From: Owenia fusiformis | Taxonomy: Eukaryota | NCBI GenBank assembly: GCA_903813345.2 | Contig: CAIIXF020000001.1 | Location: forward strand, 24,986,001 to 25,050,000 | Reading direction: 5' to 3' | Length of the DNA stretch: 64,000 bases | Shown: positions 7,601 to 42,027 of the stretch, piece after piece | Layout: each line of letters opens with the position of its first letter | Numbering within the stretch: the stretch's first letter is position 1 | Translations under genes and position numbers: made by a program | Notes under the pieces: model-generated | What the model was told of the DNA's origin: nothing | Seen by the model: only the letters and a program-made list of their open reading frames with translations | Databases searched by the model: none

Positions 7601-10600
7601 CACCCTGTAAATTCAGTATGCTGTAGTTTTAAATAGTAAAAATTGTTACCTGTATTTATAAAAACCTGGTGTAGCAGCCTGTTTAATTTCAAGGGGCCTA
7701 AGCATCTATATTATTAAAATAACTAATATCTAACATGATATTGTTTGGGCCATCATTTTTTCCGACCAGTGAACAAAGTTGGACCGTTTTTCACCATCAT
7801 AATTCAGTGTCTACAGCAAACTCTTACACCTTTTTTGTTTGCAATTCCATGATGTACAAATATGTCTTTATTTCTAATTAACAGTGTGAGTACTTTCTTA
7901 TTTTGCAACATGTATCCTTTCCAGGAGAATAGGTCGCTGGTTGACCGATATATCACCCCTGCTGCCATTGATTGCTGGAAATACATGTGTGTTCACCCTA
8001 AAGACTGCCCCATGGGCAATGACCTGGGTGCCCTCACTCAACCTTAGATTCACGGGAAAGACAGCAAAGGGTAAGCACTCAAGTCTTATCAAAGGATAGG
8101 GTATTATCAGTGACTAAAAATGGGAGTGCAATTATAGTCACAAGTATTATGGTCACGAATTACTCGATTCAACCATACAAATCATTCACCCATACAAATC
8201 ATTCTGCCATACAAATCATTCACACATACAAATCATTCACCCATGCAAATCATTCACCCATACAAATCCCTCACCCATACAAATTCCTCACCAATACAAA
8301 TCATTCTCCCATACAAATCATTCACCCATACAAATCATTCACCCATGCAAATAATTTTCCCATACAAATCATCCACCCACACAAATCATTCACCAATACA
8401 AATCATTCTCCCATACAAATCATTCACCCATACAAATCATTCACCCATACAAATCATTCTCCCATACAAATCATTCTCCCATACAAATCATTCACCCATA
8501 CAAATCATTCACCCATACAAATCATTCACCCATACAAATCATTCTCCCATACAAATCATTCACCCATACAAATCATTCTCCCATACAAATCATTCACCCA
8601 TACAAATCATTCTGCCATACAAATCATTCACCCATACAAATCATTCACCCATACAAATCATTCTCCCGTACAAATCATTCTCCCGTACAAATCATTCTCC
8701 CGTAAAATCATTCACCCATACAAATCCCTCACCCATACAAATCATTCTCCCATACAAATCATTCACCCATACAAATCATTCTGCCATACAAATAATTCAC
8801 CCATACAAATCATTCACCCAAACAAATCATTCTGCATTCAAATCATTCACCCATACAAATCATTCACCCATACAAATCATTCTGCCATTCAAATCATTCA
8901 CCCATACAAATCATTCACCCATACAAATCATTCTCCCGTACAAATCATTCTCCCGTACAAATCATTCTCCCGTAAAATCATTCACCCATACAAATCCCTC
9001 ACCCATACAAATCATTCTCCCATACAAATCATTCACCCATACAAATCATTCTGCCATACAAATAATTCACCCATACAAATCATTCACCCAAACAAATCAT
9101 TCTGCATTCAAATCATTCACCCATACAAATCATTCACCCATACAAATCATTCTGCCATACAAATTATTCACCCATACAAATCATTCACCCATACAAATCA
9201 TTCTCCCGTACAAATCATTCTCCCGTACAAATCATTCTCCCGTAAAATCATTCACCCATACAAATCCCTCACCCATACAAATCATTCTCCCATACAAATC
9301 ATTCACCCATACAAATCATTCTGCCATACAAATCCCTCACCCATACAAATCATTCTCCCATACAAATCATTCACCCATACAAATCATTCTGCCATACAAA
9401 TAATTCACCCATACAAATCATTCACCCAAACAAATCATTCTGCATTCAAATCATTCACCCATACAAATCATTCACCCATACAAATCATTCTGCCATACAA
9501 TTCATTCACCCATACAAATCATTCACCCATACAAATCATTTTCCCGTACAAGTCATTCTCCCGTACAAATCATTCTCCCGTAAAATCATTCACCCATACA
9601 AATCCCTCACCCATACAAATCATTCTCCCATACAAATCATTCACCCATACAAATCATTCTGCCATACAAATAATTCACCCATACAAATCATTCTGCCATG
9701 CAAATTTTTCACCCATACAAATCATTCACCCAAACAAATCATTCTGCATTCAAATCATTCACCCATACAAATCATTCTCCCATACAAATCATTCACCCAT
9801 ACAAATCAATCACCCATACAAATCATTCACACATACAAATCATGATGCCATACAATCATTTACCCATACAAATCATTCTTCCATACAAATCATTATCCCA
9901 TACAAATCATTCACCCATACAAATCATTCATCCATACAAATCATTCATCCATACAAATCATTCACCCATACAAATCATTCTTTCATACGAATCATTCACC
10001 CATACAAATTATTCACCTATACAAATCATCCTCCCATACAAATCATTCACCCATATAAATCATTATTCACTTTTTGTCATAATTTAACTGTCACACATTC
10101 CTATAAACATGCTGAAAATGAGGAGTAACAACTATCAACAAACAATGCACTACTGGAAATTAATAAAATAATGGCAGATGGAATTATATATTGATAACAT
10201 ATAATTAAAAATACAGTAAAACCTGTCTTAGTGAACACCTCTCTCTTGTGAACACCTGTGTTTAGTGAACACTATACACTTCAAGACACATTTTGCTGTA
10301 CATTTACTCTTGCATAAAATCCTCTCTTTGTAGTGAACATCTGCTACAGTGAACCTCTGTAGTGCACACTTCACTATATACAGATTTTATTGTAGTTAAT
10401 ATATTGATATTACAGTATTGGCCAAAAACTCTTTATTTTTAGCTCATATGGTGAGCTTTTTATGTTGCTTTTCAATGATAATTTTGCAGTGGATGCAGCA
10501 ATTAAAGAACAATTAATCCCCAAATCACATATTTATACAAGTATCTTTAGTGGTATTTGGATTGGAGCAACAATGGTGTGAATGCAAACTCCCGGCTTTA

Positions 10601-12301
10601 ATATTTCATGTTACAATCAATTTTATTATGATTTTAGTTATGCCCATATTAATATTGATAAAATCCAAATGGATGTCTTAATAATCAGGGAAACACATTA
10701 TTTATAGTACTGTAAGTGCATAACACCATTAAGGAAGATTAAACACCTGCTTCAACATCACTTAAAATGAAAACAAAGCTGGTTGGCAAAATTCTGTCTT
10801 TGGTCAGGAAGATTAGCAAAGGAAGTCCTTTTTAAGTTGTAGATTTCTATAGCACCTTATTGTTCTTCCCTACCATAAGCTAGTAGATTCCCTTACACAG
10901 GCAGATTCCCCCCCCCCCTTTTCTTGATGTTAATCAGTCTTTCTTCATCTTTCTTGATAAATGATATAACTTTATGAACCAAATCTTAAAACACAAGATA
11001 TTTTGAAAGCTTTTACAATTATAATTTTCTGATTCCAGGAGACCTATATGCCGACAGTATATTTAACCTCTATGGGCCTACAAGCTACACATTTGACAAG
11101 AACTACAATAAAGACTTTCCTATACGTACCTTTGAAGTCCCTCCTGATACTAAAAAGGTAGGCTTTACATGTTAAATGTTGGGAGCCGAGGCACATGTAC
11201 AAGTACATGTAGTGACTAATTAACTAATCAAATGAGTTTTTATGTCACCACCACAAGTGGTAACATTTTGTTCTCAAACTTTGTTATAGATGGTGTTCAG
11301 GGTTTGGCATTTGGTGTGTGGCGTTCGGCATTAGCTGTCTGTAACAAATGGCAGGTAGTGACATTATTTATGTGAATGCCTTGTTTTCAAAGTAGCAAAG
11401 ACATTTTGTATTGGTCACCTAATGGACCACTCTCCCTTCTGGTATTCCAAGCTCTTCTAATTTTATATCATGTGTTATTTCAGACTGTACTGGTATCAGT
11501 GATTACAGGGCATGGCAGTGATAACAATGGATGTGGGGAGTTCTGTATCTCATCTCACCATTTTGTTGTCAACTTTCAGCACACTTACAACAGATCATTT
11601 GATAATGCAGGTAACAATTACTATTGTTAGTACACAGTAAACCCTGTCTAAGATAACGCTTCAGGGAGCATGTTAATGTGTTTACATTGAAAAGTCTTCC
11701 ATTCAAAAGAATTGAAGTAGCTAGCCATTTACATGTCAAATACATGTGCATGCTTTTCTGTATTATCTTAAAAGATAAAGTTGTACAAGACCAATGAGAA
11801 TTCATTTTTGCCTGGTAACCAGGCTTTGACGTATTAGCCCACCTGCCAGTTCTTTTTCTTTTTGAACAAATGTTTTTTTAAATCAACCATCCACAGAGTT
11901 AAGTTTGACTTAGTTGCATTCAAACCTTTTATTCATCATAACATGTAAAAACAAAACAACGGTTATTTTTCCATAGATTGATTATTTTATTGTTTTTGTT
12001 AGAGTTTTGAATTGTTTTAGAGATAGTTGTTTTGATTACAGGTGATCAACTGGGCTGTGCCAAAGAAGTCCCTCGCGGGGTTGAGCCAAATGAGCATGGA
12101 ACGTGGCTGTATGGACGTGGCGGCTGGTGTGATGGCCAGGAGGTCTCACCATGGAATGTAGACATATCCAAACACGTCAACAATTTTACACCTAACAATA
12201 TCACATACTATGGCTGGTTTAATGGGACTGATCCTAACCCTACACAGAATCCGGGTGTTATGATTTACCAAGCATATGTGGTGTTTTACAAAATGCTCTG
12301 A
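1699..12301 (+). CDS. Secreted/lysosomal peptide:N-glycanase of the PNGase F fold with a PA domain, 11 exons, about 744 aa
   Basis: Exons 1699-2342, 2728-2882, 3156-3355, 3715-3866, 4789-4923, 5167-5291, 5625-5796, 7925-8070, 11039-11157, 11484-11610, 12042-12301. All introns are GT-AG with compatible phases (2235 nt in total). N-terminal hydrophobic segment; PA-like GC..IAIV..GDC..Q.SGAVAVIV; PNGase F-type motifs CPHWDHTV, ELGRWITPF, ITGHG..GCGEFC and GTWLYGRGGWCDG. Confidence 0.88.
5818..5920. repeat. Short intronic tandem repeat (about 27-bp unit, about 4 copies)
   Basis: Recurrent tatgcactgcaaaatatcactt-like units after the exon 7 donor. Confidence 0.6.
6046..7607 (+). mobile_element. 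Degenerate Tc1/mariner DNA transposon with long TIRs, in PNGase intron 7
   Basis: TA|CAGGGTGGGCCAAAAAAAACCACCCCC ... GGGGGTGGTTTTTTTTGGCCCACCCTG|TA, with roughly 390-bp imperfect inverted arms. Broken transposase remnants at about 6890-7040 (DSAPSH; W..NSPD; DYHIWGHLE). Confidence 0.9.
8172..10070. repeat. 17-bp minisatellite (CATACAAATCATTCACC)n in PNGase intron 8
   Basis: About 110 tandem units are directly visible. It explains the spurious 672-, 386- and 129-aa ORFs. Confidence 0.97.
10214..10392. mobile_element. Short TA-flanked MITE (Tc1/mariner/pogo-like), copy 1
   Basis: TA|CAGTAAAACCTG ... CAGATTTTATTG|TA with internal AGTGAACAC repeats; related to 12543-12723. Confidence 0.75.
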
Positions 12302-12723: not shown

Positions 12724-13059
12724 TATTACGAATTGACCGAACAAGGATTTTATATACCTAATGGGACATTTTTGATAAAGAATGGTAGTGCAAGGTATCT
12801 AGATAGCTCAAAAATCTCGGTTCTTGCAAATTTTTATTGAGGTTTGAGCTATTATTTCTCTGCTCTAGAAGATACAAAATAATGATGTGGTATCTTGAAA
12901 AAGAGCCGTCATAGAAAAACCACTGACAGGGGAATCATTGAAATTAACGAATGGCTTACTAGAACAAATTATTTTTTACATTTACATGTCAATGTTATAA
13001 ATACAATTTATATATGTAACGAATAACATCATTCTTGTTATGAAAATGACTAGTTATAA

Positions 13060-13866
13060 TGTAGGCCCAGTGTATTGTGACAAGGTATCGTGTAGGCCCA
13101 GTGTATTGTGACACAGTATCGTGTAACCCTAATGTATTGTGACAAGGTATTGTTTAGGCCCGATGTATTGTGACAAGGTATCGTGTAGGGCCAGTGTATT
13201 GTGACACGTTATCGTGTAACCCTAATGTATTGTGACAAGGTATTGTTTAGGCCCGATGTATTGTGACAAGGTATCGTGTAGGGCCAGTGTATTGTGACAA
13301 GGTATCGTGTAGGGCCAATGTATTGTGACACTGTATCGTGTAACCCTAATGTATTGTGACAAGGTATTGTTTAGGCCCGATGTATTGTGACAAGGTATGG
13401 TGAAAGCCCAATGTATTGTGACAAGGTAAGGTGTAGGCCCAGTGTATTGTGACAAGGTATCGCGTAGGCCCAGTGTATTGTGACAAGGTATCGTGTAGGC
13501 CCAGTGTATTGTGACAAGGTATCGTGTTGGCCCAAAGTCTCGGTGACAAGGTATCGTGTAGGCCCAGTGTATTGTGACAAGGTATCGCGTAGGCCCAGTG
13601 TATTGTGACAAGGTATCGTGTAGGCCAAGTGTATTGTGACAAGGTATCGTGTTGGCCCAAAGTCTTGTGACAAGGTATCGTGTAGGCCCAGCGTATTGTG
13701 ACAAGGTATCGTGTAGGCCCAGTGTATTGTGACAAGGTATCGTGTTGGCCCAGCGTATTGTGACAAGGTATCGTGTAAGCCCAATGTATTGTGACAAGGT
13801 ATCGTGTAGGCCCAGTGTATTGTGACAAGGTATCGTGTTGGCCCAGCGTATTGTGAGAAGGTATCG
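13060..13866. repeat. 31-bp minisatellite (GTGTAGGCCCAGTGTATTGTGACAAGGTATC)n
   Basis: About 26 tandem copies between the convergent 3' ends of the PNGase and NIT-GC-A genes. It produces the spurious ORFs at 13222-13937. Confidence 0.97.
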
Positions 13867-14657
13867 ACATATGTATTACTACTTCTTCTTCTGTGGAAGA
13901 AGTAGTAATACAGATGTCGACTCGCTATTTTATACATGTTCCCGGGGCCTATGGCACCAACAGTATTTTACGAGGCCCAAATTACAAAAACGATACAATA
14001 TTTGCAATCTACTCTAAATTTCCTTTCATTTGAGTATAATAAAGCTATATTTCAGAAAGATCTCAAATAATCGATAACATTAATGAGTAATGGATAAAGA
14101 CCAAGTGACAATGCCCAGATAAATTGAAAGATTTAATTTCGTTGTCAATATGCTTCTTTCTAAGATGATAGTTTATTCAGACCTTCTCACATTCATAAAA
14201 ATATTTCTGGGTTCAGTTTTATGTACTTTTAGACCATGGCCTATTAGATCTTGAAGCTGGAAACAAGCTACGAGGCTTGATAAAAAACAATGCTCTCAAA
14301 GAGATGATTGTCGTGTCATCAGTTCAGCAGGACAAAAAAAGATAATCAATTTACTTTTAATACAATTTACAAAGATACAGATACATACATACATGTATTT
14401 ACTCAATTAAAACCAATTTAAAACGCTTGTGTGTTAGTATTAGTTGTTTTTTTAGTTGACCGACTGCAAAAATCGTCCGAAGCGTTTTAAATTACTTTTA
14501 TATTTGGAATAGTGTTTCAAAGTTACTGTATTTTGCTCAGGCGAATATAACTTCTCTGATAGTGGCAATGTAACAAATTAGTTCAATGTATTGTGTCATT
14601 CACATTGTCACATTCAATCATATTGCAAGATGACATCAATGTAAGTGTGTCCGGGCA

Positions 14658-17600
14658 TCATATAGGGCCATCGTATTGTGGTAGGACATCAACCACAGTT
14701 AAACTCTTCGGGGTTCTGTTCTTTCCGATAAGCCAATGAGTCATCATATTCCCCTTACCCTGCAAGATTGACGAAACAATGAGTTGAGATTTCAAGTACA
14801 GGAATAATTAAAATTCAACACGTTTGAAATTAGAGTTGAATTATTTTATTTCCGGTTGATATAACGTCTTGGCGTTAGTGAAATCGAACGCGATTTCAAC
14901 TGATTGGATAACATGATGTGATCATGAGTAGGTTATGTGAGTGGATACACGATGGGATCGTGTTATTCTGCGAGTAGCAACCGAAGCGTTTATACACAGT
15001 TTTAGCATGATGCGTCTATTTTTGATGCATTCGGTCTGTATCATTTAGCCCTTGTTATATGCTTATATTGATACCTATACACGATGAACAGAGGATGCAT
15101 GTACTGCAATACCGTCAATGTGTTTCTACATTGGATTGATACTCATCTTTCATGCTGATGCAGTAAGAAAATCAGCGATTTGGCAAGGGTAAGAAGTAGT
15201 TTATATTGAAACAAGTATTACAATTTCGTGAGATGTTCCTCAGATAGAAAAGATTGTTGATTGGTTAGAGTAATTGGACCTTTTATGAAAATGCTCTGCA
15301 TAAACGATTTAAACGATTTTATACATGTAAACCCGAAAAGTGACCATGTGATCGTTTGAGTTTCAGTAACATCGAAAGATGCGACGCTACCCGAGAAGTG
15401 CGCTGGTGCATGAGAAAAAGTCAACGCTGAGGACCAATGTTTGGATTGTGAGTAACGCTAAACAAGGAGGGTTCAGCTATCGCAATGAATAAGATAAGTA
15501 GTTGTTAAGGTACAGCTGGAAAGTAACATTTTGGTAAAAAATTGCTATACCTGCACATGTTATTTTCTGGTACAAAATAAAGTATGAAGGCATGTGTCAA
15601 TTTCCTTGCTTTTTTCAGGAAAGTATCATTACATTGTCTTCTTTTAGAATATCTGGTAGGGGTTCAATGGAAACTCCAGAAAATTCTGATATTTCACACT
15701 TTCTATTTTTCCAAATTTTCTTTCAAAGTTTCCAGACAACACAGGAGCTACCATTGACCTGTTTCCAGATATTATAAAAGTAAACAGTGTAATGATACTT
15801 TCCTGAAAAAAGCAAGGAAATACACACATGACTTCATACTTAATTCTGTACCAGAAAATAACATGTGCAGGTATAGCAATTTTTTACCAAAATGTTACTT
15901 TCCAGCTGAACCTTAACAGATTTGCTTAGCATATCAAATATCCTTTTTTTAATGTAAGGATACTGAGTTTGTAAGTTTTGCTAAAAATATTTAGATTGGT
16001 CACAGGTGCAGGAGCACTAAAGATTGCAAGATCTATGGTTCAGTCACGGGCGAGACGCCACACTGCTACATACGTTGGATATTTGTAACTTGACTGTCAA
16101 ATGTTCATGTTTTTGAAATCATTCAGATATTTAGGTGACGACGCAACTGGTACTTTTTCCGAAGATTTGCAGAAACCGCATTTTAGGTGTTTTTAGGGAG
16201 ATGGGATCCATACAAACAAACATCCTATTCATATGTGGCAGATTTTAAACCGGAGTTACGGTTTTAGGATTGTTAAGTTGTTTCAGACATGGTAATAGCA
16301 AATATGCTCCCTCGGATTTTGCAAAAAACAGCGTTGGGCAAAGAATTTTAAAATGTTATTTTATAGCAAACGTTTTTCAAATGAACTCTGTGTTGCGCAT
16401 ATACACAGATAGATATTACAATTATAGTTTTTGTATAAAGTTGTGCAACGTAAGCATTTTAATGTTGTAAGTCATGACAAACAAATAACGAGTTGTGTTA
16501 CTGAGAAGTCATTGAATTGTTAAATGTCGTTGATTGGTGATCCATATTGGTATAGCATAATTACAAGCTAATAACGCGTATTTGTATTTAGAACAAACAT
16601 TTATTGTTGTGAATAGTTACCGGGAAGGTTGGATTCAGGCATACACCTTGGATACTTCATATCCTGCAAATAAAATTGTACTCTTGTATTTTCATATCTT
16701 TTATTATCAAGAGGATACTTGGATTCTACAGATTCATAATGAATTTTTTGTAAGCTATATGTTATCGCAAACATGTTCGTTTGCTACTCAAAACATTCAT
16801 TCATATTTAGAAATGATCAAAATGCCATTAAGGGGCTCTGTGAGTTATCATAACAGTCTTTTTGGTTGGGAAATGTCGTGAATCGTTATCAGGAGGGTAG
16901 GGTTCAGGCATATGTTTTTAGATACCGATTATCCGTACAAGAATAAATTGTATACTGTATAAGTTTCTATATTCAGAACTTTTCTTCTTCAAAGATAAGT
17001 TGCTTAATTATGGAGAATATTTTATTTGACTAATTCAGTTAAACAAACTGTTTGATCAAATGAGTTCTAAGAGTAGTCGTATTCAGCCTCAAACAGTTAA
17101 TGTTGATAGATGCAAAAAGGTTACTAGAATATTTTAATTTACATGTTCATAAATAGCTTTTTAGCTTAAATATCGGGGAGCGATATCGTTGAATACTGGT
17201 CATGTGAAATAGAAGTGAAATGCTGATCTATAAAAGTGAATTGTATAATATCAGCATTTTAAGTTTTCTAATAAGGTGTTTATACCAACAGTTCGGTCTA
17301 GTATCTCTGTTTATAACATTGATGAATAGGGTCTTTGAAGGTATGTTGTGAATCGATGGGTAGTCGGATTCAGACATATGCTTGGTACGCATACTTTACA
17401 ATAATCTGGTTGTATATGCTTACTTTTCGTCTTTAACACTCTTGTTTTCGATTTGTTTGAAAATCGATAGATACTTTTCTAAGGCGATTAGAAGATTTTG
17501 AATAAATACTTAAATAGTCTGATTAGGTAGGTGATTTCCCTATTATAATCATTTAGGTTTAAAACCTGGACTATTTTTATTTAGAACATAGTTGAATTGT

Positions 17601-20600
17601 CTTGACTCGAGACTGGGAGTAGTCAGATTTGGACATTTACTTTGGTTACATTGTTAGATAAATGCATAGTTATTGCATGTTGAATATAGTTTCTCGAAGA
17701 TTAAATAAAAACTTGCAGAGTTGCTCCATACTTGAGACATTTTGAAATAAGCGTTAGCTTAGTGTGTGACTCATGGTCCAAATGATAATTGTACATTTCT
17801 AGAGTTTACTGTATATAGCATAGAGAAATCGATGTAAGATAGACAATGGTTTGAGTTTATACATTGGGTATTTTGATCCAGGTATGTTCCCTGGATGATC
17901 CATGTTTTTTGGCAAACATTGATGTTTAAAATTTGTTACTGCATATAATTTTGGTTAAAATTAAACAAGTTATTTGAAAGATGATCAAATCTTTTTGGGA
18001 CTAGTTTAGTTCAAGCGACTGTGTTGGATCTAGTTCAGTTTTATTGAACGATACTTAGGCACGGTACTTAGGTATGCATTTGTGTCATCTATAGTTTATA
18101 CAGTTGAAAAGTCTTTAAGAAGAAAGATGAAATGCAAAGAAACTATTTTGAGCTGGCATATTCACAGATGTATTTAGGATGCAGAGCGAAGTTGAAATAT
18201 TGCATTTTTAGATTTTTAAAGAATCAAACGAATTTTTGTGAATTGATTTTTGAAGAAATACACTTGGTAAATTACATATTTGGACTCTGACTTAGGATTG
18301 TCATTATGTTTGGCATTATAGCCATTACGTTGAGTAGTTGTTCTGTTGAATAAAAATTGTTGTCATGCTTGACACTATAGCCATGACGTTGAATAGTTGT
18401 TAATATGGTTTTAAGATGATAGTTGTGTTCTTAACAACATTTATAATATTAGTGCGACAAACACATTAGAGAAGTGTTCGTTAGCTAATTGCATTCTATA
18501 TTGAATATGTTTGGCATTATGGCCATTACGTTGAGTAGTTGTTCTGTTAAAGCACAGTTGGCACTCCGACATAAAAATTGTTATGTTTGGCATAATTACC
18601 AGTACGTCGAATAGTTGTTCTGTTGAAGTACAGTTGGAACTCCGACGTGAAAATTGTTGTCATGTTTGGCATTATTTCCAGTGCGTCGAAAAGTTGTTCT
18701 GTTGTAATACAGTTGGAACTCCGACGTAAAAATTGTTATCATGTTTGGCATTGTAGCCATTACGTCGAGCAGTTGTTCTGATGCAGTACAGTTCGAACTC
18801 TGACGTAAAAGTCTATTTGTATCGTGGGTTGACGGATTCATATAATGCGTCGAACGCAGGTACAATTTAGCAACCTCAAAAGAGGTTTGTCGCTTGGAGC
18901 GACAATGCGATATTTGCATGTTTTTAATGCTAGTTCTGTGTAATTTCAGGAAATACAACCCATAGTAGGGTATGGACACACGCCTAAATGAATACTGGAA
19001 CACAAGTTGCCCTTATAAGATAGATACAAGTGTGATATAAACAAGATGCTTTGGACTGATTCAAGAAGACTACTTGGTTGGATTGAGATCCATATAAGAC
19101 AGATACAAGAAATACAACCCATAGTAGGGTATGGACACAAGCCTAAGTGAACACTGGAACACATTTTGTCCATACAAGATAGATACAAGCGTGATATAGG
19201 TTAGATGCATTGAGCTGATGACTAGAAGACTTTACTTTGTTGGATTGAGATCCGTATAAGATAGATACATGTACGTGTGATACAGAGAAGATGCCTTGGA
19301 CTGATTCAAGGAAGACTACCTTTGTTGGAAAGTCTCAATGAAAAGACATTTCGAGCTTTGGACACTAGTTTGCCCGTTTTTTAGGAGGTTCTGGCGTAGC
19401 TGCTGGCTCGAATTTAATCCTATAATATATATGATATTATGTTGTGTGGTTTGTGGTGAAGACTGTTTAATTAGGAAATAATTAAAATTCAACACGTTTG
19501 AAATTAGAGTTGAATTATTTTATTTCCGGTTGATATAACGTCTTGGCGTTAGTGAAATCGAACGCGATTTCAACTGATTGGATAACATGATGTGATCATG
19601 AGTAGGTTATGTGAGTGGATACACGATGGGATCGTGTTATTCTGCGAGTAGCAACCGAAGCGTTTATACACAGTTTTAGTTAATGTTGTAAGTTGTCATA
19701 CAACCGATTCGAAATTTTAGTTTTATTGTTCGAGGAGGCATACCTTTTTCCCTTTCGAAAGTCACAAATATTTTGATCTGGGTTTTAACGGTGTCAGGTC
19801 GATAAACTAAAGTTTTTCATATTGAAGTCAATGAACACTTTCTTTAGTGCTATTGACCAAATCAACGTTTTTGAATAAAGTATACGTGTTCTGACGTTGA
19901 TGTAACCTGTTCCCAATAATTACTATTTTGGGAAGTATATTTTTCTGCAATTATTACAAAGCATTGCATAGCATAGGATGTTAATTAAGTTAATTAAAAC
20001 ATTTAGATATTAGGTTTCTAAGAAGCAATTATGTAATTTGCATATAAATCTGAAACTTAAGGCATGGCTTTTTACTGACAGCGCATTGTATCTAAGCGAA
20101 TAAACATGTATTTAAGTGCGTTTCTGTCATATTGTTTCAAGGAAGGTACAAAGTTTTTCTTTTTAAGATATTGATTATATCCGGAAGTCCTTTATATTTT
20201 TAGATATGTAATATCTATTTCCAGAAGGGCATCAATTTTGGTATTTTAAAATGATAGTTGTGTTCCTTAACAACATTTACAGTAGTTGTGTTATATCAGT
20301 GTGACAAACACATTAAGAGAAGTGCTTGTCAGCTAATTGCATTTTATATTAAACAGATAGTATTTAGATTTACAACGTTTCGAAGAATTGTACTTTTGCT
20401 TTTGTTGCAATACGAGATCAGTTTGTATAAGGGTTTGTAAAGCTTGGTGCTTTCCAGATATTATATTGTTCATCACAATAGTTTTAGAAGATTGTATGAT
20501 TTTTGTAGTCCGGTCGTGGATTCTTGTGACAATCACGGAATTTTTGTCTTTTGTGACCAACAATGTCGCATATTACGACAGTCTATTAAAGAAGCAAGTT

Positions 20601-23600
20601 TCATTAACTTTCTGAGTTACGTGTTTTGCCAAAAGGCAATGTTATTGTTACAGTGCATGTCTGTAGACAGTGATTTAGATTATTGTTATGTATTAATGAC
20701 AGTGCGTGGTTACTGTATTAGATAGTGAGGTATGTTACTCACAGATTTTGCATAGTGCTAGAAGGCACTATATACGTGTGTTCCTTATACAAGTTTTTTT
20801 ATAGTGCAAGTTGACAGATAGTCACAATTTAGAATTGGTTTATTCCGAAATTTGTGAATTAATTTGAGATCTTTGACGTGTTAACAAACGTGTAGCCACA
20901 ATGGCTTTAATGACAGTTGATCATTAGATATTGATGGGTTGTTGGATTTAGATGTTATAATTAGGCACACGGTGCCTTTTTGGTGTCTTGAAGGCAGTTA
21001 AACATCGTAAATCAGCAGCGAGGTTGGGAGCCGAGGACGGATGTTGGGTATCTTTGAACCTAAGAGGTTTCTGGCATTAATGCCATCGGCATCGTGGCCG
21101 CTATGACATTGGCATCGTGGCCGTCATAGGTACCTGGATGCATCGCGAACTGGCTACATTTTTTCATTTTTTCACTCATTCTTTGTATCCGATGTACTTA
21201 ATGCTATTCCAATAAACGCGGGCTGCTGGCTCGAATTTAATCCTATAATATATATGATATTATGTTGTGTGGTTTGTGGTGAAGACTGTTTAATTAGGAA
21301 ATAATTACACAGGACACCACATACGTGTAACTTAAAAACAGATGTCATTTTTGTTAACTTTGAGTGCTTCTACTAATCGAAAAGAAATATTGTCAAATTC
21401 TTTGTTTGGAATCCTTGAACTTGCTGTTTCCACTACGATCATTTTATATTCAACCAAGGCCAGGAATGTCTCTACAGACGTAGGACAATAATTGACACTA
21501 CCATTTCTGTCGCATCGGTATTACATATTTCACTGAGATGGCTATAGAAAGTTATTGGGCATAACTTAATTGAATAAGAAAAATTGTAATTATGACAAGA
21601 GGGGACAATAAACGTGTTGGATAATTAAGAAATATAGACCGAAGAGCGGGAGTACTATTGTCGAATACACCCCGCAGGGCTAGCACACAGTGACTTTATA
21701 TAGTCGTAACTTATTGTACTTTTCTTACACCCTTTCACCGACTGATCTAGATTAAGAAGTAATTGGCCATGTTTTTTATTTATGTTTGCTATGCTTATTA
21801 TCCATTCCCAATATCAACCTCTACTCGGTCATTACCTTGCCCAGTTTTTTACCTTAATGTGTGTCATGCCTCTCTCCTCTGTAATAAACTTGCCGGTTCT
21901 CTCAAGGGCCGAATGCATAGCGTGAGATATGTGGATTTTCTGTGCTGCACAAACAGGCGTAGGAGATATATTAATTGCAATATTTATGGATTTAATACGA
22001 ATAACTCATTCTGTCAATACAGTAAAGTTATTCAAAATGGAAAGTTGCAAAATTCACATTTAATGAAAGAGCTCGTGATAATGACAATCGCATGTAAGTC
22101 ATGTTATTTTCGATACGATCATTTTACTTACGCTCTCCGCTTGTTTGCATTCTTGCAGCTGTATTAACGGTATCACCAAATAGGCAATACCTTGGCATTC
22201 TGTTTCCAACAATTCCTGCTACCACTGGGCCTTAAACAGGATGTGATTGAAAAGGTTACTTTACATATTAGGGAATTAGCTATTGAGGTCACCATTTGTG
22301 TTGTTTGTTTTTAAATATTGCCTTCGCGCTCTCTTGAAAGCCCATGTCATTAACAAGCTCAACAAAGTTAATGACGTTCTTGTATTTTGTACTTCAACTC
22401 ATTGTTAAATGTACATAAACATGCCAACTATACAAGCCGATTTAGATCAAAGACATTTTAGATGATTTTTCCAGTCTATGAGTCTAGATGTTCACATCAT
22501 GGTTTGAAAGAAAATTAGCCAACATGCTAATAAGAAAATCTCAAAAATCTTAATATCAGGGATCTTAAATAAAAAAGCAAGACAAGTACCTGTATGCATG
22601 CCGACCTGTAGTTGGATCTCCATACCTGGTAGATCGGATACAGCAACTCTCTTGACCCTGTAGATTACATCAAGTGCCAGAAGAGCTATCTCCAGAGTAT
22701 GTCGATCACCATTCCTGTGCGGTAGACCACTTGCGACCATGTAAACATCATTGATTGTCTCTACCTTATACACGTCATAACACTCGATCCTCTCATCGAG
22801 AAATGTATAGACAGTGTTGAGAAGATTCACCACCTGTCTAGGAGGGAGAGACGATGAGAGATCGGTGAAGCCAACAACATTACTGAAGTACACCGACACA
22901 CTCCCGAATTTCTCGGCGATGATCCGCTTATCGTTCTTTCGTCGCTTTAATCTCATCGCTACAATTCTTGGTATCATTTGAAACAGTAAATACTCAGTTT
23001 TCCGTTTCTCTTTTTTGAGCTGCTTCTTTTGTGTTTCTAGCTCTTTTGTGTAATTCGTAATGCCAGATGTAGCTTTGTAAAACATAAAGGTTAGAGTTGG
23101 AATGATGCATACGATTACAAGAAGGGTAATGATTTCACGAATCATCGCGTCATTGGCATTGTTAAATCCAAGCTTTAGGTCCTCAAGATGGTCCGCAAGT
23201 ACCATATCCCTCATGCTACCCAATGTCTCGATTTGGTACGTTTTGTTCGAAAACCAAACCAGTGCTTTGTAGCGCTGTGATCCTAAATCCGAACGACGCT
23301 CTGTAATTTCTGCTGTCATGTTTTCTAAACGTGCTTCGTACCCGGGAAGTACCCACTGCTCTTCGTAAAATGAATTCAGATCGGCATCCAATTCCCTAAC
23401 TTTGTTCATGTAAAATTCTGACAAAGCATTATTTTCAAGAAAATATTGAAAGTTGTTTTCATTCAGTCGACCATTTATAAAATAAACCGATCCAAGTGCT
23501 CGTTGTATCCCTATTCGGTCTTGGATATCTAGCAAATAACCGACGGCGATATCATTTTGCCACTCAGTGGTATCTTCATCGTAGGTTGCTTCATCGGGAT

Positions 23601-24186
23601 CGTAAATTGTAGACATAATCCAGTCCGTTATGTTACCAATTACCATTGTATAGAAGTTCAGTTCCTTTCGTACTGTAGTGCGAGTTCCAAATCGCGACAC
23701 AGTGGCCCGTCTGTCTTGGAGCACAGTTTTGAAGTCCAGTACGTTATCAAACGGAAAATCATCTGAGGTATCGGGCCACTCGGTAACAGAATTTATGGAA
23801 TGATCGGTAATGAGATAATGAGCATACATCTTTTGAAAAATGTCAGTATCGTAAGACTCTATGTACATGGATGTAAGTCCACGTTCTACTTGGAGTGCCT
23901 CGATCACTTTGCTGACATCAGCGAGAATAAGGACAGAGTTGTATTCGTTACTCGCCCATGTGTTCTTCTTCTGAGCATTAAATAAGTTGACGATAGATTG
24001 TGCGGTGAGGGCCAGTAAAGGAATTAAAAGAAGTGTGAGGAGTTTGATAAGTTGGATTCTTCTTCCATTCCTTGTAGATAGATCAGGGTTCAAAATAACA
24101 TTCGCCATCCGCCATTTTTGTAACGACAAACTCTCCACAGAGGCTTCTGAGTCTATTCGTTCTGTTCGTTGAAAGAAATTCTCCAT
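14658..24186 (-). CDS. NIT-domain, two-transmembrane guanylate-cyclase-like protein (NIT-GC-A), 4 coding exons, about 629 aa
   Basis: Exons 24186-22590, 22230-22132 ([33 protein letters not shown]), 21944-21853 ([15 protein letters not shown]) and 14759-14658 ([12 protein letters not shown]..stop), all GT-AG and in phase. Architecture: TM1, NIT motifs LQVERG and GIQRALG, TM2, coiled coil (..[11 protein letters not shown]), class III cyclase domain. Confidence 0.9.
14803..21307. mobile_element. Non-autonomous element with split direct repeats A1...B1A2...B2 (tyrosine-recombinase retroelement-like)
   Basis: A1 14803-15005 matches A2 19477-19679 (203 bp); B1 19399-19484 matches B2 21222-21307 (86 bp); both pairs are identical by eye. 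AATAATTA is present at all three junctions. No TIRs and no long ORF. Confidence 0.75.
15509..15912. mobile_element. Near-palindromic MITE with TTAA target duplication (Kolobok-like GG...CC ends), nested in the split-repeat element
   Basis: TTAA|GGTACAGCTGGAAAGTAACATTTTGG ... CCAAAATGTTACTTTCCAGCTGAACC|TTAA, with arms longer than 130 bp. Confidence 0.85.
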
Positions 24187-24662
24187 CGTTTCATTTGGTT
24201 AGGTCCAACAGTTACTTCTTATTTTCCTGATTACTGAAAATGGGTAACAGCATTAAGATAGTCGTCATGTTGATACAGGACCTTCAGAAAATAGTTTCCT
24301 TGTATCTTCCATCATTTGCCTCTGCTGTATATCATAAGAAAGTGTTCTGAAATAGAATCAAAAGTTCCTTTATTTTCTTTAATTAAGCAAAATAGATCTA
24401 GAGGGCCGTAATGAGATTATTTATCCAATGAAACTACTACTTCCAGGTGAATAACACGGGGGGATATTTTTGGTATTGAGAATGCGTATTCTCCCTCCCA
24501 ATCCCTCTCACGAAAATCGTATTCACCTCCCAATTCCACTCACAAAAATCGTATTCACCTCATGGGAATGCCTGCCAAACAATACTTTTTATTTCGTTCA
24601 GTTTGCTCGATAAATCGAGCTATGGTGGTGGTCATCATTTTAAAAAAATATCTTTTGCACAT

Positions 24663-27154: not shown

Positions 27155-30100
27155 CTAACGTAACATAGCTGCAAACACTCCAGCAATTACGCATGTCATC
27201 GATGCAACAGTAGCGGTTGCCATGTTGTCCTTGGTTTCCTCTCCGCCCTCGAAACCACCACCGAATACAGCGTCTGTATCAGGCTGACCAAGTATTCTTC
27301 CCACAAATACTATCGAGCCGCTAGATTTTTCTCTTACGAAGAACATAAATGGGTGGTCGGCCTTGAACGCCACTGGAAACTGGACTGATGTCAGACTGAC
27401 CTCTGCTCCAGTACTTGCCGCAGCCTCTGTACCTACAGATAAAGTAATTGTACTTGTAACCTGGTAACGGTCTTGCGAATAAAGATACTAGAACACTTTC
27501 AAAAAGTGTATGCTAGGCAGGGATTCAGAAAATAAATATTTACAAAAGGCCCCGCGTTATCCTTAACCCCGTCAATGCAAACGGAAAATATTTAAGCGAT
27601 GCATTTGAAATATTTGCCTTTTTTTGTAGCATTGATAGGGTTCAACTAATATGACTATTTAATGTTTAAAAAATGCGGACTTTAAATGCGGAGTGGCATT
27701 CGAATATTATTTGAACAGTTCAACAAACCTGTTTAGGCTATTCGTTCTATCTACATCATACGAGGTCGTATACACAGAACCGTCGTCAAACACCGCAGAA
27801 TAAGTGACAGCTATATTGCTTGTTCAAACAATTAAAAATCTTACTGAATGACAAACGTTGAAAAAGAAAAGTTGCCACTGACATTGTTTTATCATTAGGG
27901 AGTTTAAGCTTGCATATAAAATCGAAACCGTTCACGTTTAGGTTGTGAAAAACATTGCAAGCTTAAACTCCCTAGTGTGAGGTCGTGTTCGTTTTTTTCG
28001 ATATACATGCATATACATGCAAGTAAATAAAAATTCAAACGTAAAGAGGCTTTAACACGTAGTTCAATGGAGAAAAAAGGTCGCCAAACTTATGGAGGGG
28101 AGTGTATTTAGCTTACCTTCTTCATTTACAATTACATAAGCTTTGTGGGCCAGCGCAGACACAAATAGATTTGCCCCCTCGCTGATACCATTCAGGTTTG
28201 CTTTTGTGTTGCTGAATAGGTCGGCCATCCCAAGTGCAGCCATATTAGATCGCAGATCAAACTTCTGAGCAATCTCAAATTTTGGAAGCGATACTTGGAC
28301 CAATTTTTCTTCAAAGTTAGCTGTGTCTACAAGTGTCTCCAAGGTTTCAATGTTCAATATTTTTTCAATATCTCCAAGTCCCATTTTCATGTCAGGTAGA
28401 ACTACATACATACTTAGGTCATCCCCTTCATATGGCAATTCAAGAACTTTCACCTTCAGCTCAGCATTTTCGTGAATTTGGAATTTCTTTTGCTGATTCA
28501 TGAAGTCCATTTGTATCCCATCTACGTCGTTATCAGATGTGTAGAATGATCCTTTTTTGGTGGCACCATCTACGAAGGGAGATTTCCACTTGCCTTTAAA
28601 GTACATTGCGTTGACGAGAACTAAAACAGTCATGGAAGTGATGGAGTCTTCAGGCATCAAATCCTCAATCTTCCCTTCCGTCCTCTCCTTGACCCATCCA
28701 TTGATCTTTTGCCTTGCAGCCTCGGCATCGGCGCGAAAATCAACTTCCTCCCACTTGGTAAAAAAGTAAAAATAATATAGAATAAAATGTTTAATATACT
28801 GCTAAATAAGTTGCATTAAGAGAGAATCGTAGAGAATATTTTTTCTTGTATAATAGGCAGTTATTTCTTTTATTATAACGGAAAAAAATATAATACGTAT
28901 TTTTAAGAATTATTTTTGATTTAATAATATTATTCGTGTATTATTTAAAGGGAACAACATATAATGCCAAATAAAATAGAATAATATTCCTGTCAGGAGC
29001 AAATAATATGTTGGCATTTGCAATCAAAAACCTATTATACGCGGTTATTTTCGAGCCGTTAATCCCTAATTATTCAATTCCTATGAAATGAGTTTCATTC
29101 ATACTGATAATTAATCTGTTTGTTAGGGTTAATCTCTACAGCTGATGGCTCTTAATTCCACAAAAATAATTTGCAAAATAAGTTTTTACATACATATTTG
29201 ATTGTATAATGTCCCTCATGTTATGATTAACATTGTGTTAAATTTTTGATTCAATCAATTAATTCATTGTAAAGTTAATTTTTGAATTTTTAATTAATTT
29301 GTTTTCCTCACATTTTAATCCATTGTTTCTCTGTCACATTAAGTTTATAGCAAACAACATTTAAATCGATCCCCTCTTACACAGGTACAAACAACCACCT
29401 GTATTCACTTTCCCAACCGGAAAAACAGTCATGACAGGGAACTGTTCAATATTCAATAAACACATTACGCATTGGCCAACAATTCTGTCAAAATCATGTA
29501 GTTTTTCACCATTCACATACATGTATTGACATTCCAGAGCAATATAATAAGTCAAACTTTAATCCCTAATTATTCAATTTCCATGATTTGAGTTTTGTTC
29601 ACAATGATAAATAATCTGTTTGTTTGAGTTAATGGATTAATATCCACAGCCAATGGTTCTAATTTCAACTGAAAAATAAATTGCAAATTAAGTTTTTCAT
29701 ATTTATTTGATTGTATAATGTCCCTTATGTTATGATTAACATTGTGTTAAAATTTGGATTTAATTGATTGACTCAACGGAAAGTTAATTTTTAATCAATG
29801 GGTTTCCTCACAATTTAACTCAATTGTTTTTCTGTCAAATTAAGTTTACAACAAACAACACTTAAAGCCCCCTCTTATACAGACACAAACACCTTTAATC
29901 ATTTCACAAACACCACAAAACATTTAAGACACGAAACTGCTATATATCAAAACATTACGAATTTGGTATAGGTCCATGGCCAGGGAGGGGGGGGGGGTTC
30001 AAGTAAATCCCCCCTTGCCAAAATTCTTTCAAAATCTTACATTTTTTACCAATCTGAGCACTGTTAAGTGATTTCGGGCCAAAATGATCAAGTGTGACCC

Positions 30101-32572
30101 CTTGGTTTGTTTTGAAAATTGATCCCCTGGGCTAAAACTTATTCCGAGCCTGTATTATATTGGATGTACATGTATTGCTCCGATTTCTTCTGGCAAATCG
30201 CTGATGATAAATAAGAAAGGTACATTAGGCTAGGTTAACTGATACAAGTGGTGTTAAGCCATGCTAAAACAAAATTAAAACGTGTATTCTCTCACATTTC
30301 ACAATTCATGCATTTTCTGTTATCCATATATCTGAGATATAAACTGGGGATATAAACAACAGATTAGTCCATGATGTAATACATTTGTTTCTACTACAAT
30401 TGGACCATTTAAAGCTGGTTTTAATTAATTTATTGTTTTCCATTTTCAAATGTATATTCGGTATGTTTAGTTGTTTGATAATAAAAAATAAGAAGCGGGC
30501 ACATTTTATATTTATTCCTAATGTTTCATCTGACATAGCGATGATTACGCTTTGAGCAAATTGATGCATGGTAGAACAAACTGATGTAAATAACATGTTG
30601 ACATACAGGACATGTATGTCAGAGCAATATGATAAGTAAAACTTTAATCCCCAATTATTCAATTGTGTTTTGTTAACACTGAAAGCTAATCTGTTTGTTG
30701 GAAGCGATGGATTAATTTCCTACAACCAACTGTTCTAAGTTCCACAAAAAAATAATTTAAAAACCAAGTTTTTCATATTTATTTGATTCTATAATGTCCC
30801 TTATGTTATGATAAACATTGTGTTAAAATTTGGATTAAATTGATTGACTCAACGGAAAGTTAATTTTTAATCAATGGGTTTCCTCACATTTTTACTCCAT
30901 TGTTTCTCTGCCATATAAAGTTAACAACAAACAACATTTAAGCGCCACTCTTATACAGGCACAAACAACCACCCGTATTCACTCTGCCAACCACAAAAAT
31001 AGTCTTGACACAGAACTGCTCAAATTTTAGCTAAAAGCATTACGCATTTTATACAGGCCCGTGCCTAATGAGTAACGATCCCCTCCCCTTGGCCAACAAT
31101 TCTTTCAAAATCATGAAGAGTTTCACCATTCACATACATGTTCATGTATTGATGACAGAGCAATATAAGTAATACTTTTGTTCACTGATAACTAATCCGA
31201 TTGTTAGAGTTAATCCGTTTGTTAGAGTGAATGGATTAATATCTAGAGCCGATTGTTTTATTTTCCACAAAAATAATAATTTGCAAATTAAGTTTTTCAT
31301 ATTTGTTTTATTGTATAAAATCCCTCTTTCTATGATTAACATTGTGTTAAAATTTGGATTGAATCGATTAACTCATTGGAAAGTTAATTATTTGATTTTT
31401 AATTGATGACTTTTGCACATTTTTACTCCATTGTTAACATTAATTTAAAACAAGTTAAATTTCTTTCTTCTAAACATTTATTTGTAAATATTTTTCAAAT
31501 AGAAATAGAACAGTCAAAATAAAATATGTGTGACATGTGTAAGTAATAGAGATGAGAAGGCCAGTAGAACAGTTAATCCTACTAACTGCCATGCTGTGCA
31601 TTCTTTGTTTTGTTTGGTTAAGTAATTAACCAGATGGATTGTACATCAAGTTGGACGAGAATAATCGAGTATAATATTTTTTAGAACCCAAATAATACAA
31701 TATAATTTGATATATTCTGCTTAGATTGGAAAATACTAGAAAATAATATTTTTTAGAATAGAAAAAATCTAAATAGACTGCAATCATCAGTTTGGATTGA
31801 TAAATATGACCAAATAATATTTTAGAAAGACAGAATAAATATAAATTGGCGCAAATAATTCTAAAAAAAGAATATTATACCGGAAATAAAACATTCTGCT
31901 ACATTTTCTTATTGAGAAAATCGGATTTGGTAAATGTTTATATGTACAAATAATATATTTGGATCTCACTTATTTCTAATTATATTATATTAATATCTAT
32001 ATAATGTAGTATATTATGCTGATTATATTTTTTTCCTTCATAATATAATATAATAATTACAATACTGAATGGAAATACTGTATTATTACGCATCTTTTTA
32101 CACAAATATCCCAAAATAAAACATATTTTTATATATTATTTTATCGATTTCACCAAGTGTCCAGTTCTGCATCGAAGAAGGTATTGGTATCAGTAAGAAA
32201 GGATTCTTTGATGGTAAATTGCTGGTCACCAAATAATCTGTTTGCTGATTTCAGTGTATAGTTGTTGTTTCTATTGTATAATCTTTTATTCAGGTCTTGG
32301 AACGTTTCCCTAAAGTTCTCACCAATGTTTTCGTACCTCATCACCTGCTCTATCTGTGTCTTAGTATCACCATCAGCGCCCATATACAACATTGCCATGG
32401 CGGTTGAAATGCTCAGTGGTCCAAAGAACAAATTCCCATCCGTCTCTTCGTTTAGCTTATTGTAAAGATTAAGAGCGAATTCGTTGTTAGACGATCCGAG
32501 TTTTTGCATGCTGGACATTTGGGAATGTACCGCACATGCCATCCCAAGCAATACAACTAACTGCTTCATCAT
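27155..32572 (-). CDS. Secreted serpin with a C-terminal hydrophobic (GPI-signal-like) tail, about 440 aa; this allele is interrupted by a transposon
   Basis: 32572-32160 joined to 28748-28117 forms one exon once the insertion and one TSD copy are removed, then 27432-27155 (1323 nt, open). Signal peptide MMKQLVVLLGMACAVHS; motifs NLFFGPLSIS, LVNAMYFKGKW, LELPY, hinge EEGTEAAAST, FKADHPFMF. Confidence 0.9.
28752..32159. mobile_element. 3.4-kb non-autonomous DNA transposon (CAC...GTG termini, 3-bp TSD; CMC/CACTA/Chapaev-like) inserted in the serpin coding exon
   Basis: TCC|CACTTGGTAAAAAAG ... CGATTTCACCAAGTG|TCC. About 45-bp imperfect TIRs, AT-rich subterminal regions, four internal copies of a roughly 500-bp repeat (shared core near 29170, 29680, 30760, 31280), no ORF. 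Confidence 0.88.
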
Positions 32573-32769
32573 CGTAGAACGCGACTCTATAAAAAGGAGC
32601 GAAATGCAGTGATAATAATTGAATATGTTCTGTTTAATAACTTCATATATATGTTATCAGTGATTTCTAGATGGTATCCATGAAGACTCTCTTTAATTTT
32701 TTACTAATTTTAGTATTTTATTTTATTAACTCAATATCTACATAGTAGAAATACCAATCTTGTCGTGTC

Positions 32770-41113: not shown

Positions 41114-42027
41114 CAGGGTGTTCAAAAAAACGCAACCCAAAGAAATTGCTATATCTTGATGAATACTAGTTCAATTATGTTCTTTTTTCAGGAAAGGAAG
41201 AAGAGACTGTGTATGTATAGCTCATTTAGTTTGTTAGATGTAAAGCATGATGCATTGGACACCTGCTCAAAAGACAGTTGTACTAGGAAAATACGAAAAA
41301 CCCAGTCACGGCTGACTGCAACCGCAAAAAAACTAAATAACTTCCTAGCCATGGTGTTTTGGCTCTTCAAATTTGGCACAAATCATTTTCATTCACTGTA
41401 TGGTAAATTTGTAAAGTGAAATTAAAATCACGTAAGGGACTTTACAGTTATGATTGAAATGCTTTCAAATCGCAGCCAAACGCTCTGGTTCCAGCAGACT
41501 TCAGAAGGCATTTTGACCATGACTGTAAAGTCCCTGAAGTGATTTTGATAAAACTCCACAAATACACCACACATTAAGTGAGGATAATTTGTGCCAAATA
41601 TGAAGTGCCAAAACACTATGGTTAGAAAGTTGTTAGGTTTTATTGCTGTGGCAGTCACCTCTGACTGCGTTTTTCGTATTTTCCTAGAACAACTGTCTTT
41701 TGGGCAGGTGTCCAATTCATCATGTTTTATAATTTACTAAGAACAGGAGCTATACATACACAATATCTTCTTTTTTTCCTGAAAAAAATGAACATAATTG
41801 AATCAGTATTTTCCAAGATATAGTGATTTTCCATTCGCGTTTTTCGTATTTTCCTAGTACAACTGCCTTTTGAGCAGCTGTACAAGACATCATGTTTTAC
41901 AACTAACTAACAACAGGAGCTATACATACACAGTCTCTTCTTTCTTTCCTGAAAATATGAACACAATTGGATAGGAATTTTTCAAGATATAGCGATTTCT
42001 TTGGGTTGCGTTTTTTTTAACACCCTG
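41114..42027. mobile_element. Tc1/mariner-like fold-back MITE with a partly duplicated right arm
   Basis: CAGGGTGTTCAAAAAAACGCAACCCAAAG ... CTTTGGGTTGCGTTTTTTTTAACACCCTG. A right-arm segment appears twice (about 41665-41830 and 41836-42000). The TA flanks are degenerate. Confidence 0.8.

Follow-up and report, generated by a model that had tools for sequence, protein, structure and literature searches.

No order of retrotransposons is less well understood than the tyrosine-recombinase retroelements, and the circle and the choice of insertion site attributed to them are still largely models. In the accessible portions of four published accounts (PMC4157794, PMC9210276, PMC6681497, PMC8547959), an arrangement of the form A1-B1A2-B2, in which the partners of each pair are identical, defines the split direct repeats of PAT, Ngaro and VIPER. 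Here we describe an element with this arrangement in a stretch of 64,000 nucleotides from the annelid Owenia fusiformis (GenBank assembly GCA_903813345.2, contig CAIIXF020000001.1, positions 24,986,001 to 25,050,000 of the forward strand), which we refer to throughout as the window. The element is non-coding and occupies 6.5 kb of the last intron of a guanylate cyclase gene. The reading that we favour, and that we judge to be about evenly poised between right and wrong, is that of a DIRS-order retroelement (PAT, Ngaro or VIPER type) with split direct repeats, which was inserted recently, is non-autonomous and would be mobilised in trans by an autonomous tyrosine-recombinase retroelement.

TOC1 of Chlamydomonas reinhardtii, a PAT-type element of 5.7 kb, has split repeats and no enzymes of its own, and coding relatives of it (TOC3) exist. 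It is termed a non-autonomous DIRS retrotransposon in the accessible text of PMC9940879. The internal repeat lies between the methyltransferase (MT) domain and that of the tyrosine recombinase (YR) in the nematode element Pat1 and in Kangaroo (PMC4157794, section 7), and solo AB repeats have been reported for Ngaro in Cafeteria (PMC8547959). DIRS1-like elements, including one from an annelid, are described in the available part of PMC3266345 as starting and ending with a 3-bp circle-junction sequence, mostly AAT or ATT, which is matched in the target and produces no target duplication. PMC7192593 summarises, and in part tests, the model by which an internal template restores the ends; in that study the complementary DNA was mainly linear and single-stranded and the circle junction could not be amplified.

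Repeat architecture and insertion site

The element is delimited by two pairs of direct repeats, A and B (Table 1), which were recovered by a repeat search covering positions 13000-23000 of the window, by reading of the sequence, and by an independent blastn comparison of the element with the 64-kb window. In the latter, the A pair matched at 203/203 positions (E 1e-102) and the B pair at 86/86 (E 3.5e-39). The repeats end abruptly: the bases to the left of the two A copies differ (14802 g vs 19476 a), as do those to the left of the B copies (19398 a vs 21221 g) and to their right (21308 c vs 19485 a), and the DNA downstream of A1 is unrelated to that downstream of A2. Repeats of this length (203 and 86 bp) without a single mismatch could not arise by chance. 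The identity and sharp edges that the first-pass annotation had reported from inspection by eye are thus borne out.

One 8-mer, AATAATTA, forms the first 8 bp of the element (14803-14810), its last 8 bp (21300-21307) and the overlap of B1 with A2 (19477-19484). Since both ends and the overlap have this sequence in common, B1A2 matches exactly the sequence expected from joining the right end to the left end, as had been claimed beforehand. The flanking strings given at that time were also correct, namely ACAGG followed by AATAATTA on the left, TTAGGA followed by AATAATTA at the junction, and CACAGGACACC on the right. The resemblance that had been drawn between the left flank and the junction holds as a string match (AGG-AATAATTA against AGGAAATAATTA), but three extra bases and a gap are not significant on their own.

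Table 1. Features of the element and of its host intron, in window coordinates; A' and B' denote A and B without the shared 8-mer.
Feature	Position	Strand	Description	Evidence
Whole element	14803..21307	+	6505 bp, layout [8-mer]A'-x-B'[8-mer]A'-y-B'[8-mer]	Repeat search, sequence reading, blastn
A1, left terminal repeat	14803..15005	+	203 bp, 100% identical to A2	
x, internal DNA between A1 and B1	15006..19398	+	4393 bp, non-coding	Open reading frame list, Pfam
Foldback in x	15503..15918	.	416 bp: two 175-nt arms, 90% complementary, 66-nt loop	Repeat search
79-bp tandem array in x	18301..18814	+	18507-18810, 3.9 copies, 85% matches; degenerate copies farther upstream	TRF
~159-bp repeats in x	18947..19329	+	2 to 3 copies, 83-85% identical	Repeat search, blastn
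B1, internal copy of right terminal repeat	19399..19484	+	86 bp, 100% identical to B2	
Perfect 8-bp inverted repeat	19466..19486	.	TTTAATTA-GGAAA-TAATTAAA, 5-bp spacer; spans the B1/A2 junction, complete only there	
Imperfect hairpin, 5' arm across junction	19474..19528	+	-9.5 kcal/mol, z -2.9, 1/200 shuffles as good	
A2, internal copy of left terminal repeat	19477..19679	+	203 bp; overlap with B1 is AATAATTA (19477-19484)	
y, internal DNA between A2 and B2	19680..21221	+	1542 bp, non-coding	Open reading frame list, Pfam
AATAAA, 5 nt before B2	21211..21216	+	GT-rich run follows inside B	
B2, right terminal repeat	21222..21307	+	86 bp; ends in AATAATTA (21300-21307)	
Last intron of host NIT-guanylate cyclase gene	14760..21852	-	7093 bp	tblastn of P0001, splice sites read in sequence
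Last coding exon of host gene	14658..14759	-	Protein end ...PI, then stop	tblastn, sequence reading

The interior carries no long open reading frame, in agreement with the first-pass annotation: the longest stop-to-stop frame overlapping the element has 138 aa, and none of the 89 six-frame pieces of at least 35 aa from positions 14700-21400 matched a Pfam family at its curated cut-off. Four weak sub-threshold Pfam rows fall in the element (E 0.0026 to 0.025), none of them related to transposition, and neither an Rfam search (E up to 1, positions 13000-23000) nor a tRNA scan of the window gave a match inside it. A scan for bacterial promoters and terminators, which has no bearing on an animal, revealed no enrichment either. 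Similarity between x and y is limited to 110 bp at 80% (18409-18505 vs 20244-20353), a common part so small that we rejected the idea that they are diverged copies of one sequence. The foldback in x shows no obvious target duplication and is probably either a passenger or a nested insertion of greater age; since its arms have diverged much further than A and B have, it is likely to have moved together with the element.

The insertion site lies in a gene that can be followed on both sides of the element. A 568-aa frame at 22492-24198 (minus strand) encodes a guanylate cyclase with a NIT domain and is 99% identical to the public Owenia fusiformis protein P0001 (629 aa). The exons of P0001, located by tblastn against the window, all lie on the minus strand at 24186-22576, 22231-22133, 21945-21847 and 14765-14661. 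The last intron has its donor GT at 21852-21851, after ...ACACATTAAG, and its acceptor AG at 14761-14760, before GGTAAGGGG; splicing joins ...THIK to GKGNMMTHW, in a part of the cyclase domain that is conserved. With the element and one 8-mer copy removed, this intron would measure ~596 bp. The element is therefore cleanly inserted into an intron that would otherwise be short, in a conserved gene, and the predicted empty site reads TTCAAGTACAGG-AATAATTA-CACAGGACACC. If the plus strand is the sense strand of the element, its orientation is antisense to the host gene. The insertion makes this last intron, in a guanylate cyclase gene of sensory type, about twelve times as long, and its left end lies 43 nt upstream of the acceptor, so that splicing of the host gene may be affected.

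The flanks also bear on whether the structure could be an assembly artefact, either two haplotype versions, A-x-B and A-y-B, stitched in tandem, or a mis-join of long reads. According to PMC9977687, the published Owenia reference, from which the window may derive, is a Canu assembly of noisy PacBio reads, with Arrow and Racon used for polishing and purge_haplotigs for de-haploidisation; polishing of this kind can inflate the apparent identity of repeats. However, the read N50 reported there (25-31 kb) far exceeds 6.5 kb, so that single reads would span the element, and an 8-bp overlap gives an assembler no basis for a join. A false haplotype duplication would also double the flanking intron DNA, and the flanks are not duplicated. 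We consider an artefact very improbable.

Origin of the element

In the reading that we favour, transcription would run from within one terminal repeat to within the other, and the enzymes of an autonomous relative, acting in trans, would turn the RNA into DNA. The internal B1A2 would serve as the template that restores and joins both incomplete ends, yielding a circle with the junction B-AATAATTA-A, and a tyrosine recombinase would cross this junction with a genomic site bearing the same short sequence. Recombination at a common short sequence would leave an integrated element that starts and ends with AATAATTA and shows no other duplication; the target in this case would have been the AATAATTA of the guanylate cyclase intron (~596 bp), 43 nt upstream of its acceptor. 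In this scheme the RNA step, the circle, the recombinase, the partner acting in trans and the mobility of the element are all proposed by analogy with described systems.

Several features of the locus agree with this scheme. The order A..BA..B, with A1 equal to A2 and B1 equal to B2, is the layout of PAT, Ngaro and VIPER, and the internal repeat is the junction of the joined ends, as the circle-template model of these elements holds. The repeats show 0 differences in 289 bases beside the unrelated sequences x and y, which is easier to reconcile with renewal of the repeats from a single template than with two families of separate origin; perfect identity would be expected of template-renewed repeats in a young copy. 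AATAATTA, which contains both AAT and ATT, recurs at the two ends and at the junction and no further duplication is seen, as in the accounts of DIRS1-like elements. The B1/A2 junction is spanned by a perfect inverted repeat, of a kind that numbers 57 in 64 kb and covers 1.3% of the window bases, and is crossed by one arm of a hairpin; the whole BA unit is much more strongly folded than its shuffled counterparts. The strand bias common to A, x, B and y, the clean insertion into a short intron and the precedent of TOC1 and SIRE point the same way. No Pfam match to the reverse transcriptase (RT)-RNase H and tyrosine recombinase coding regions of the DIRS order was found in the element. The proposal of a non-autonomous tyrosine-recombinase retroelement made in the first-pass annotation consequently stands as far as the A1..B1A2..B2 layout, the non-coding interior and the clean insertion are concerned, and falls short in that no RT, RNase H or YR was found in either the element or the window.

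Several observations weigh against a split-repeat retroelement. The first is that the local structure is equally expected from two non-autonomous DNA elements with common ends, A'xB' (~4.67 kb) and A'yB' (~1.82 kb), inserted head to tail, an alternative that the first-pass annotation had already named for a Crypton-like element. Here the second unit would have entered at the end of the first, as a circle or site-specifically, B1A2 would be the seam, and the machinery would be a Crypton-like tyrosine recombinase or a rolling-circle (HUH) system, with no reverse transcription. The geometry [8]A'xB'[8]A'yB'[8] is exactly what such a pair predicts, and x and y are unrelated, as expected of two families. 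The right end of a resident copy consists of half a junction site plus the core, and would thus be a natural target for a second unit. For the rolling-circle version, x is rich in internal tandem repeats, which are common in non-autonomous rolling-circle derivatives of marine invertebrates. However, Helitron-type ends, with a 5' TC, a 3' CTRR and a GC-rich 3' hairpin, are not visible. Helitrons are recognised by a 5' TC, a 3' CTRR and a subterminal hairpin rich in GC, and they insert between a host A and a host T; by eye, no placement of the ends within the 8-mer gives 5' TC / 3' CTRR termini, and we rejected a Helitron or Helentron.

The Crypton-like version has closer published parallels. 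In the accessible part of PMC3212892, Cryptons are reported with 4-6 bp direct repeats at both ends as recombination substrates and with a proposed excised circle, and their abundant non-autonomous derivatives keep several hundred bp of both parental ends. Each putative A'..B' unit is bounded by the 8-bp AATAATTA; the Crypton repeats of 4-6 bp are described from fungi and oomycetes. Against this version, the same text reports animal Cryptons as lacking any terminal repeats. The pair would also require end identity of 289/289 between otherwise unrelated elements, with similarity lost abruptly. Ends common to different families are usually a few percent diverged, and in the non-autonomous Crypton case of PMC3212892 they are 98% identical; at that level, by our own arithmetic, the chance of 0/289 differences is ~0.003. 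The Pfam scans found no recombinase or Rep in the window. Overall, we regard a head-to-tail pair as an unlikely alternative, yet as the strongest rival of the reading that we favour.

The second point on the unfavourable side is the 8-mer itself, which occurs once at each end and at the junction of a single copy; an 8-bp target-site duplication would look alike. Third, this common end sequence has 8 bp, compared with 3 bp in described DIRS1-like elements. Fourth, the inverted repeat that spans the B1/A2 junction, a candidate recombinase site, is AT-rich. The palindrome is suggestive, with a probability of chance occurrence of ~1-2%, and not compelling in AT-rich DNA. Fifth, the cues to the sense strand conflict. 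The usual sense strand of retroelements is A-rich and G-poor, which points to the minus strand, while the AATAAA before B2 argues for the plus strand. With the plus strand as sense, this AATAAA is a possible poly(A) site; none precedes B1 on the plus strand, and a minus-strand AATAAA lies within each copy of A.

Sixth, searches for relatives and enzymes returned nothing. In the rest of the window, blastn detected no additional copy of A, of B or of the internal DNA. A search of a protein database with a 67-aa frame across x-B1-A2 gave no candidate copy, and an exact 20-mer of A and an exact 21-mer of B had 0 and 0 matches in metagenome contigs. The metagenome and protein collections are unlikely to contain Owenia DNA, so these blanks carry little weight either way. 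The 89 Pfam-scanned pieces of at least 35 aa held no remnant of an RT, RNase H or tyrosine recombinase, and none of these enzymes was found elsewhere in the window among 94 pieces of at least 70 aa from open reading frames (123 outside the element, minus 29 that lie in tandem repeats or had already been scanned).

A second copy was not found in any collection searched, which favours a one-off event, in which repair at an 8-bp microhomology inserted a circular or tandem DNA with two BA segments that had formed elsewhere, such as an extrachromosomal circle derived from a long-period repeat, or in which a template switch during replication duplicated A and B locally. An identity of 8 bp at the joints is in the typical range for microhomology-mediated joining, and the non-coding, repeat-rich interior would also suit an event of this kind. 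However, the break in the donor must then have coincided with a junction that bears a perfect inverted repeat and a hairpin, and no part of the element recurs in the surrounding 64 kb. The BA unit is, in addition, strongly structured, which suggests a function: single-strand folding of positions 19399-19679 gave z-scores of -4.35 (plus strand) and -5.47 (minus strand), and 0/200 shuffles were as good. Several small hairpins were found in A1 from the fold z-scores, and the hairpin across the junction is partly rebuilt at the left end of the element by the host GG (-6.6 kcal/mol, z -1.5, 15/200 shuffles), with none found by folding at the right end.

Base composition bears on the same question. 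On the plus strand, A, x, B and y are all C-poor and T-rich to a uniform degree, with C at 0.13, 0.14, 0.08 and 0.14 (0.141 in both x and y) and G at 0.23, 0.20, 0.22 and 0.20, respectively, whereas the right flank is without strand bias (C 0.18, G 0.18). Since the whole 6.5 kb has its own uniform bias, unlike the flanks, it is not a local duplication of intron DNA. This common bias fits a unit that passed through a single-stranded stage. The CpG observed/expected ratio of A is 1.99, compared with 0.75 for the window. Taken together, we regard a one-off event as improbable; a single-copy rearrangement would be of local interest only.

Direct repeats and an 8-bp end repeat give the element a superficial similarity to a long terminal repeat (LTR) derivative of the LARD or TRIM type, to a cut-and-paste element (hAT-like, with an 8-bp duplication), or to a pair of these. 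LTR derivatives carry a full repeat at both ends, TG..CA termini, a primer-binding site and a polypurine tract, and hAT-type elements generate an 8-bp target duplication. We rejected the LTR class because the ends are complementary halves of BA, with A on the left and B on the right, and not two full repeats. BA moreover starts with GC and ends with AG, not TG..CA, and by eye no TGG primer-site-like sequence follows A. A hAT-like element with terminal inverted repeats was likewise rejected: the first 60 nt and the reverse complement of the last 60 nt gave a best local score of 9, against a shuffle mean of 8.4 and with 199/500 shuffles scoring at least as high, and the repeat search found no terminal inverted pair in 13000-23000. 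We find an origin in either class hardly credible.

A more specific form of the split-repeat reading can be put forward, which we think distinctly unlikely: that of an annelid split-repeat element, active and wholly non-coding, whose circle junction serves as a true attachment site (with an 8-bp core in a 21-bp palindrome beside a hairpin) and which picks genomic sites matching 8 to 11 junction bases. If that attachment-site reading were true, the locus would be the first case in the order where an insertion directly reveals a target chosen by extended homology to the junction. With a predicted empty site and no coding DNA to complicate constructs, it would also lend itself, as a natural substrate, to tests of the circle-and-recombinase model, which is still unproven. 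If the family is active, a young, non-coding and sharply bounded insertion with a predictable empty site would be a simple substrate for asking which sequences are required in cis, how ends are rebuilt from an internal copy and how targets are picked.

Neighbouring features of the window

The surroundings of the element are rich in repeats. A 31-bp tandem repeat at 13060-13866 (26 copies, 86% matches) lies ~0.9 kb to the left of the element, directly downstream of the last guanylate cyclase exon, and its degenerate copies reach ~14683. A 30-nt inverted pair, 77% complementary, connects the left flank of the element (14775-14804) with a segment 1.1 kb to its right (22377-22406) and is probably due to chance. 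Further tandem arrays are located at 36909-38679 (period 94 bp, 18.8 copies), 41667-41998 (period 170 bp, 2 copies), 43636-45378 (period 445 bp, 3.9 copies) and 57888-58583 (period 321 bp, 2.2 copies).

Two paralogous NIT-domain guanylate cyclase genes are present, at 22133-24186 and 54280-61839, both on the minus strand and ~29% identical over 242 aa. Between them lies a serpin gene with exon frames at 27158-27487, 28064-28801 and 32150-32653 (minus strand). On the plus strand, exon-like frames at 5618-12298, split by long gaps, match peptide-N-glycosidase F domains (Pfam N-glycanase_N, E 5e-08; N-glycanase_C, E 7e-09 and 4e-13). The peptide-N-glycosidase F family is bacterial, and this intron-bearing animal gene may represent an old gene transfer. 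A 17-bp satellite between the glycosidase-like exons (8167-10064, 112 copies, 87% matches) is a source of long spurious open frames, and the GC skew is about -0.8 for 8001-10000. Finally, a 193-aa open frame on the minus strand (63421-63999) runs off the end of the window; it has a Cys-x-Cys...His...Cys pattern near its C-terminus and no Pfam match, and by eye we take it to resemble the tail of a non-LTR retrotransposon ORF2.

Comparison with described elements

The qualification "new" in the first-pass annotation was overstated, since non-autonomous members of the order, TOC1 (PMC9940879) and SIRE (PMC6681497), are already in print. A literature search of partly accessible sources returned no description of a non-autonomous split-repeat element in an annelid, which does not show the family to be undescribed, and a look-up of the terms DIRS, Ngaro and Crypton in the accessible main text of two Owenia papers (PMC11292947, PMC9977687) gave no mention of them.

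The element described here would embody the same concept as TOC1, a split-repeat element that needs mobilisation in trans. TOC1 differs in being a green-alga element with no sequence relation to the annelid one, and in that its mobility and copy-number variation are documented, whereas the Owenia element is known as a single copy. Among animal elements of the Ngaro and PAT type (DrNgaro1 of zebrafish, Pat1 and Xenopus families), the available descriptions give split direct repeats with identical partners, a length of ~4-7 kb and a variable position of the internal repeat. Because this position varies among known families, the 1.5-kb interval between A2 and B2 is within the known range, although it exceeds the compact B1A2B2 tail with which Ngaro is drawn. 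The Ngaro and PAT-like elements code for gag, RT-RNase H and YR, in some cases with MT or a hydrolase, whereas the Owenia element encodes nothing.

VIPER of Trypanosoma cruzi shares the A1...B1A2B2 repeats, which are 100% identical in some copies, and SIRE is a short, non-coding, truncated and non-autonomous VIPER built of VIPER end sequences, as described in the accessible part of PMC6681497. SIRE differs in having ~0.4 kb and only the A2-B2 region, compared with the full split-repeat set and a 6-kb non-coding interior in Owenia. DIRS1-like elements (DIRS-1; CaspDIRS1 of the annelid Capitella) have in common with it a single short sequence at both ends and at the junction, together with a proposed recombination between junction and target (PMC3266345, PMC7192593, as far as accessible); they differ in their inverted terminal repeats and internal complementary region, in place of split direct repeats, and in a common sequence of 3 bp, not 8 bp. 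Cryptons, in the available text of PMC3212892, offer a tyrosine recombinase, a proposed circle, short end repeats in fungal and oomycete members, and non-autonomous derivatives with parental ends, but an internal repeat equal to the joined ends is not described for them, their animal members are without terminal repeats and their cycle has no RNA step. If the split-repeat reading is right, the features that would set the Owenia element apart from these systems are its 8-bp common end sequence, its palindromic junction, its 6 kb without coding DNA and its long A2-B2 spacer.

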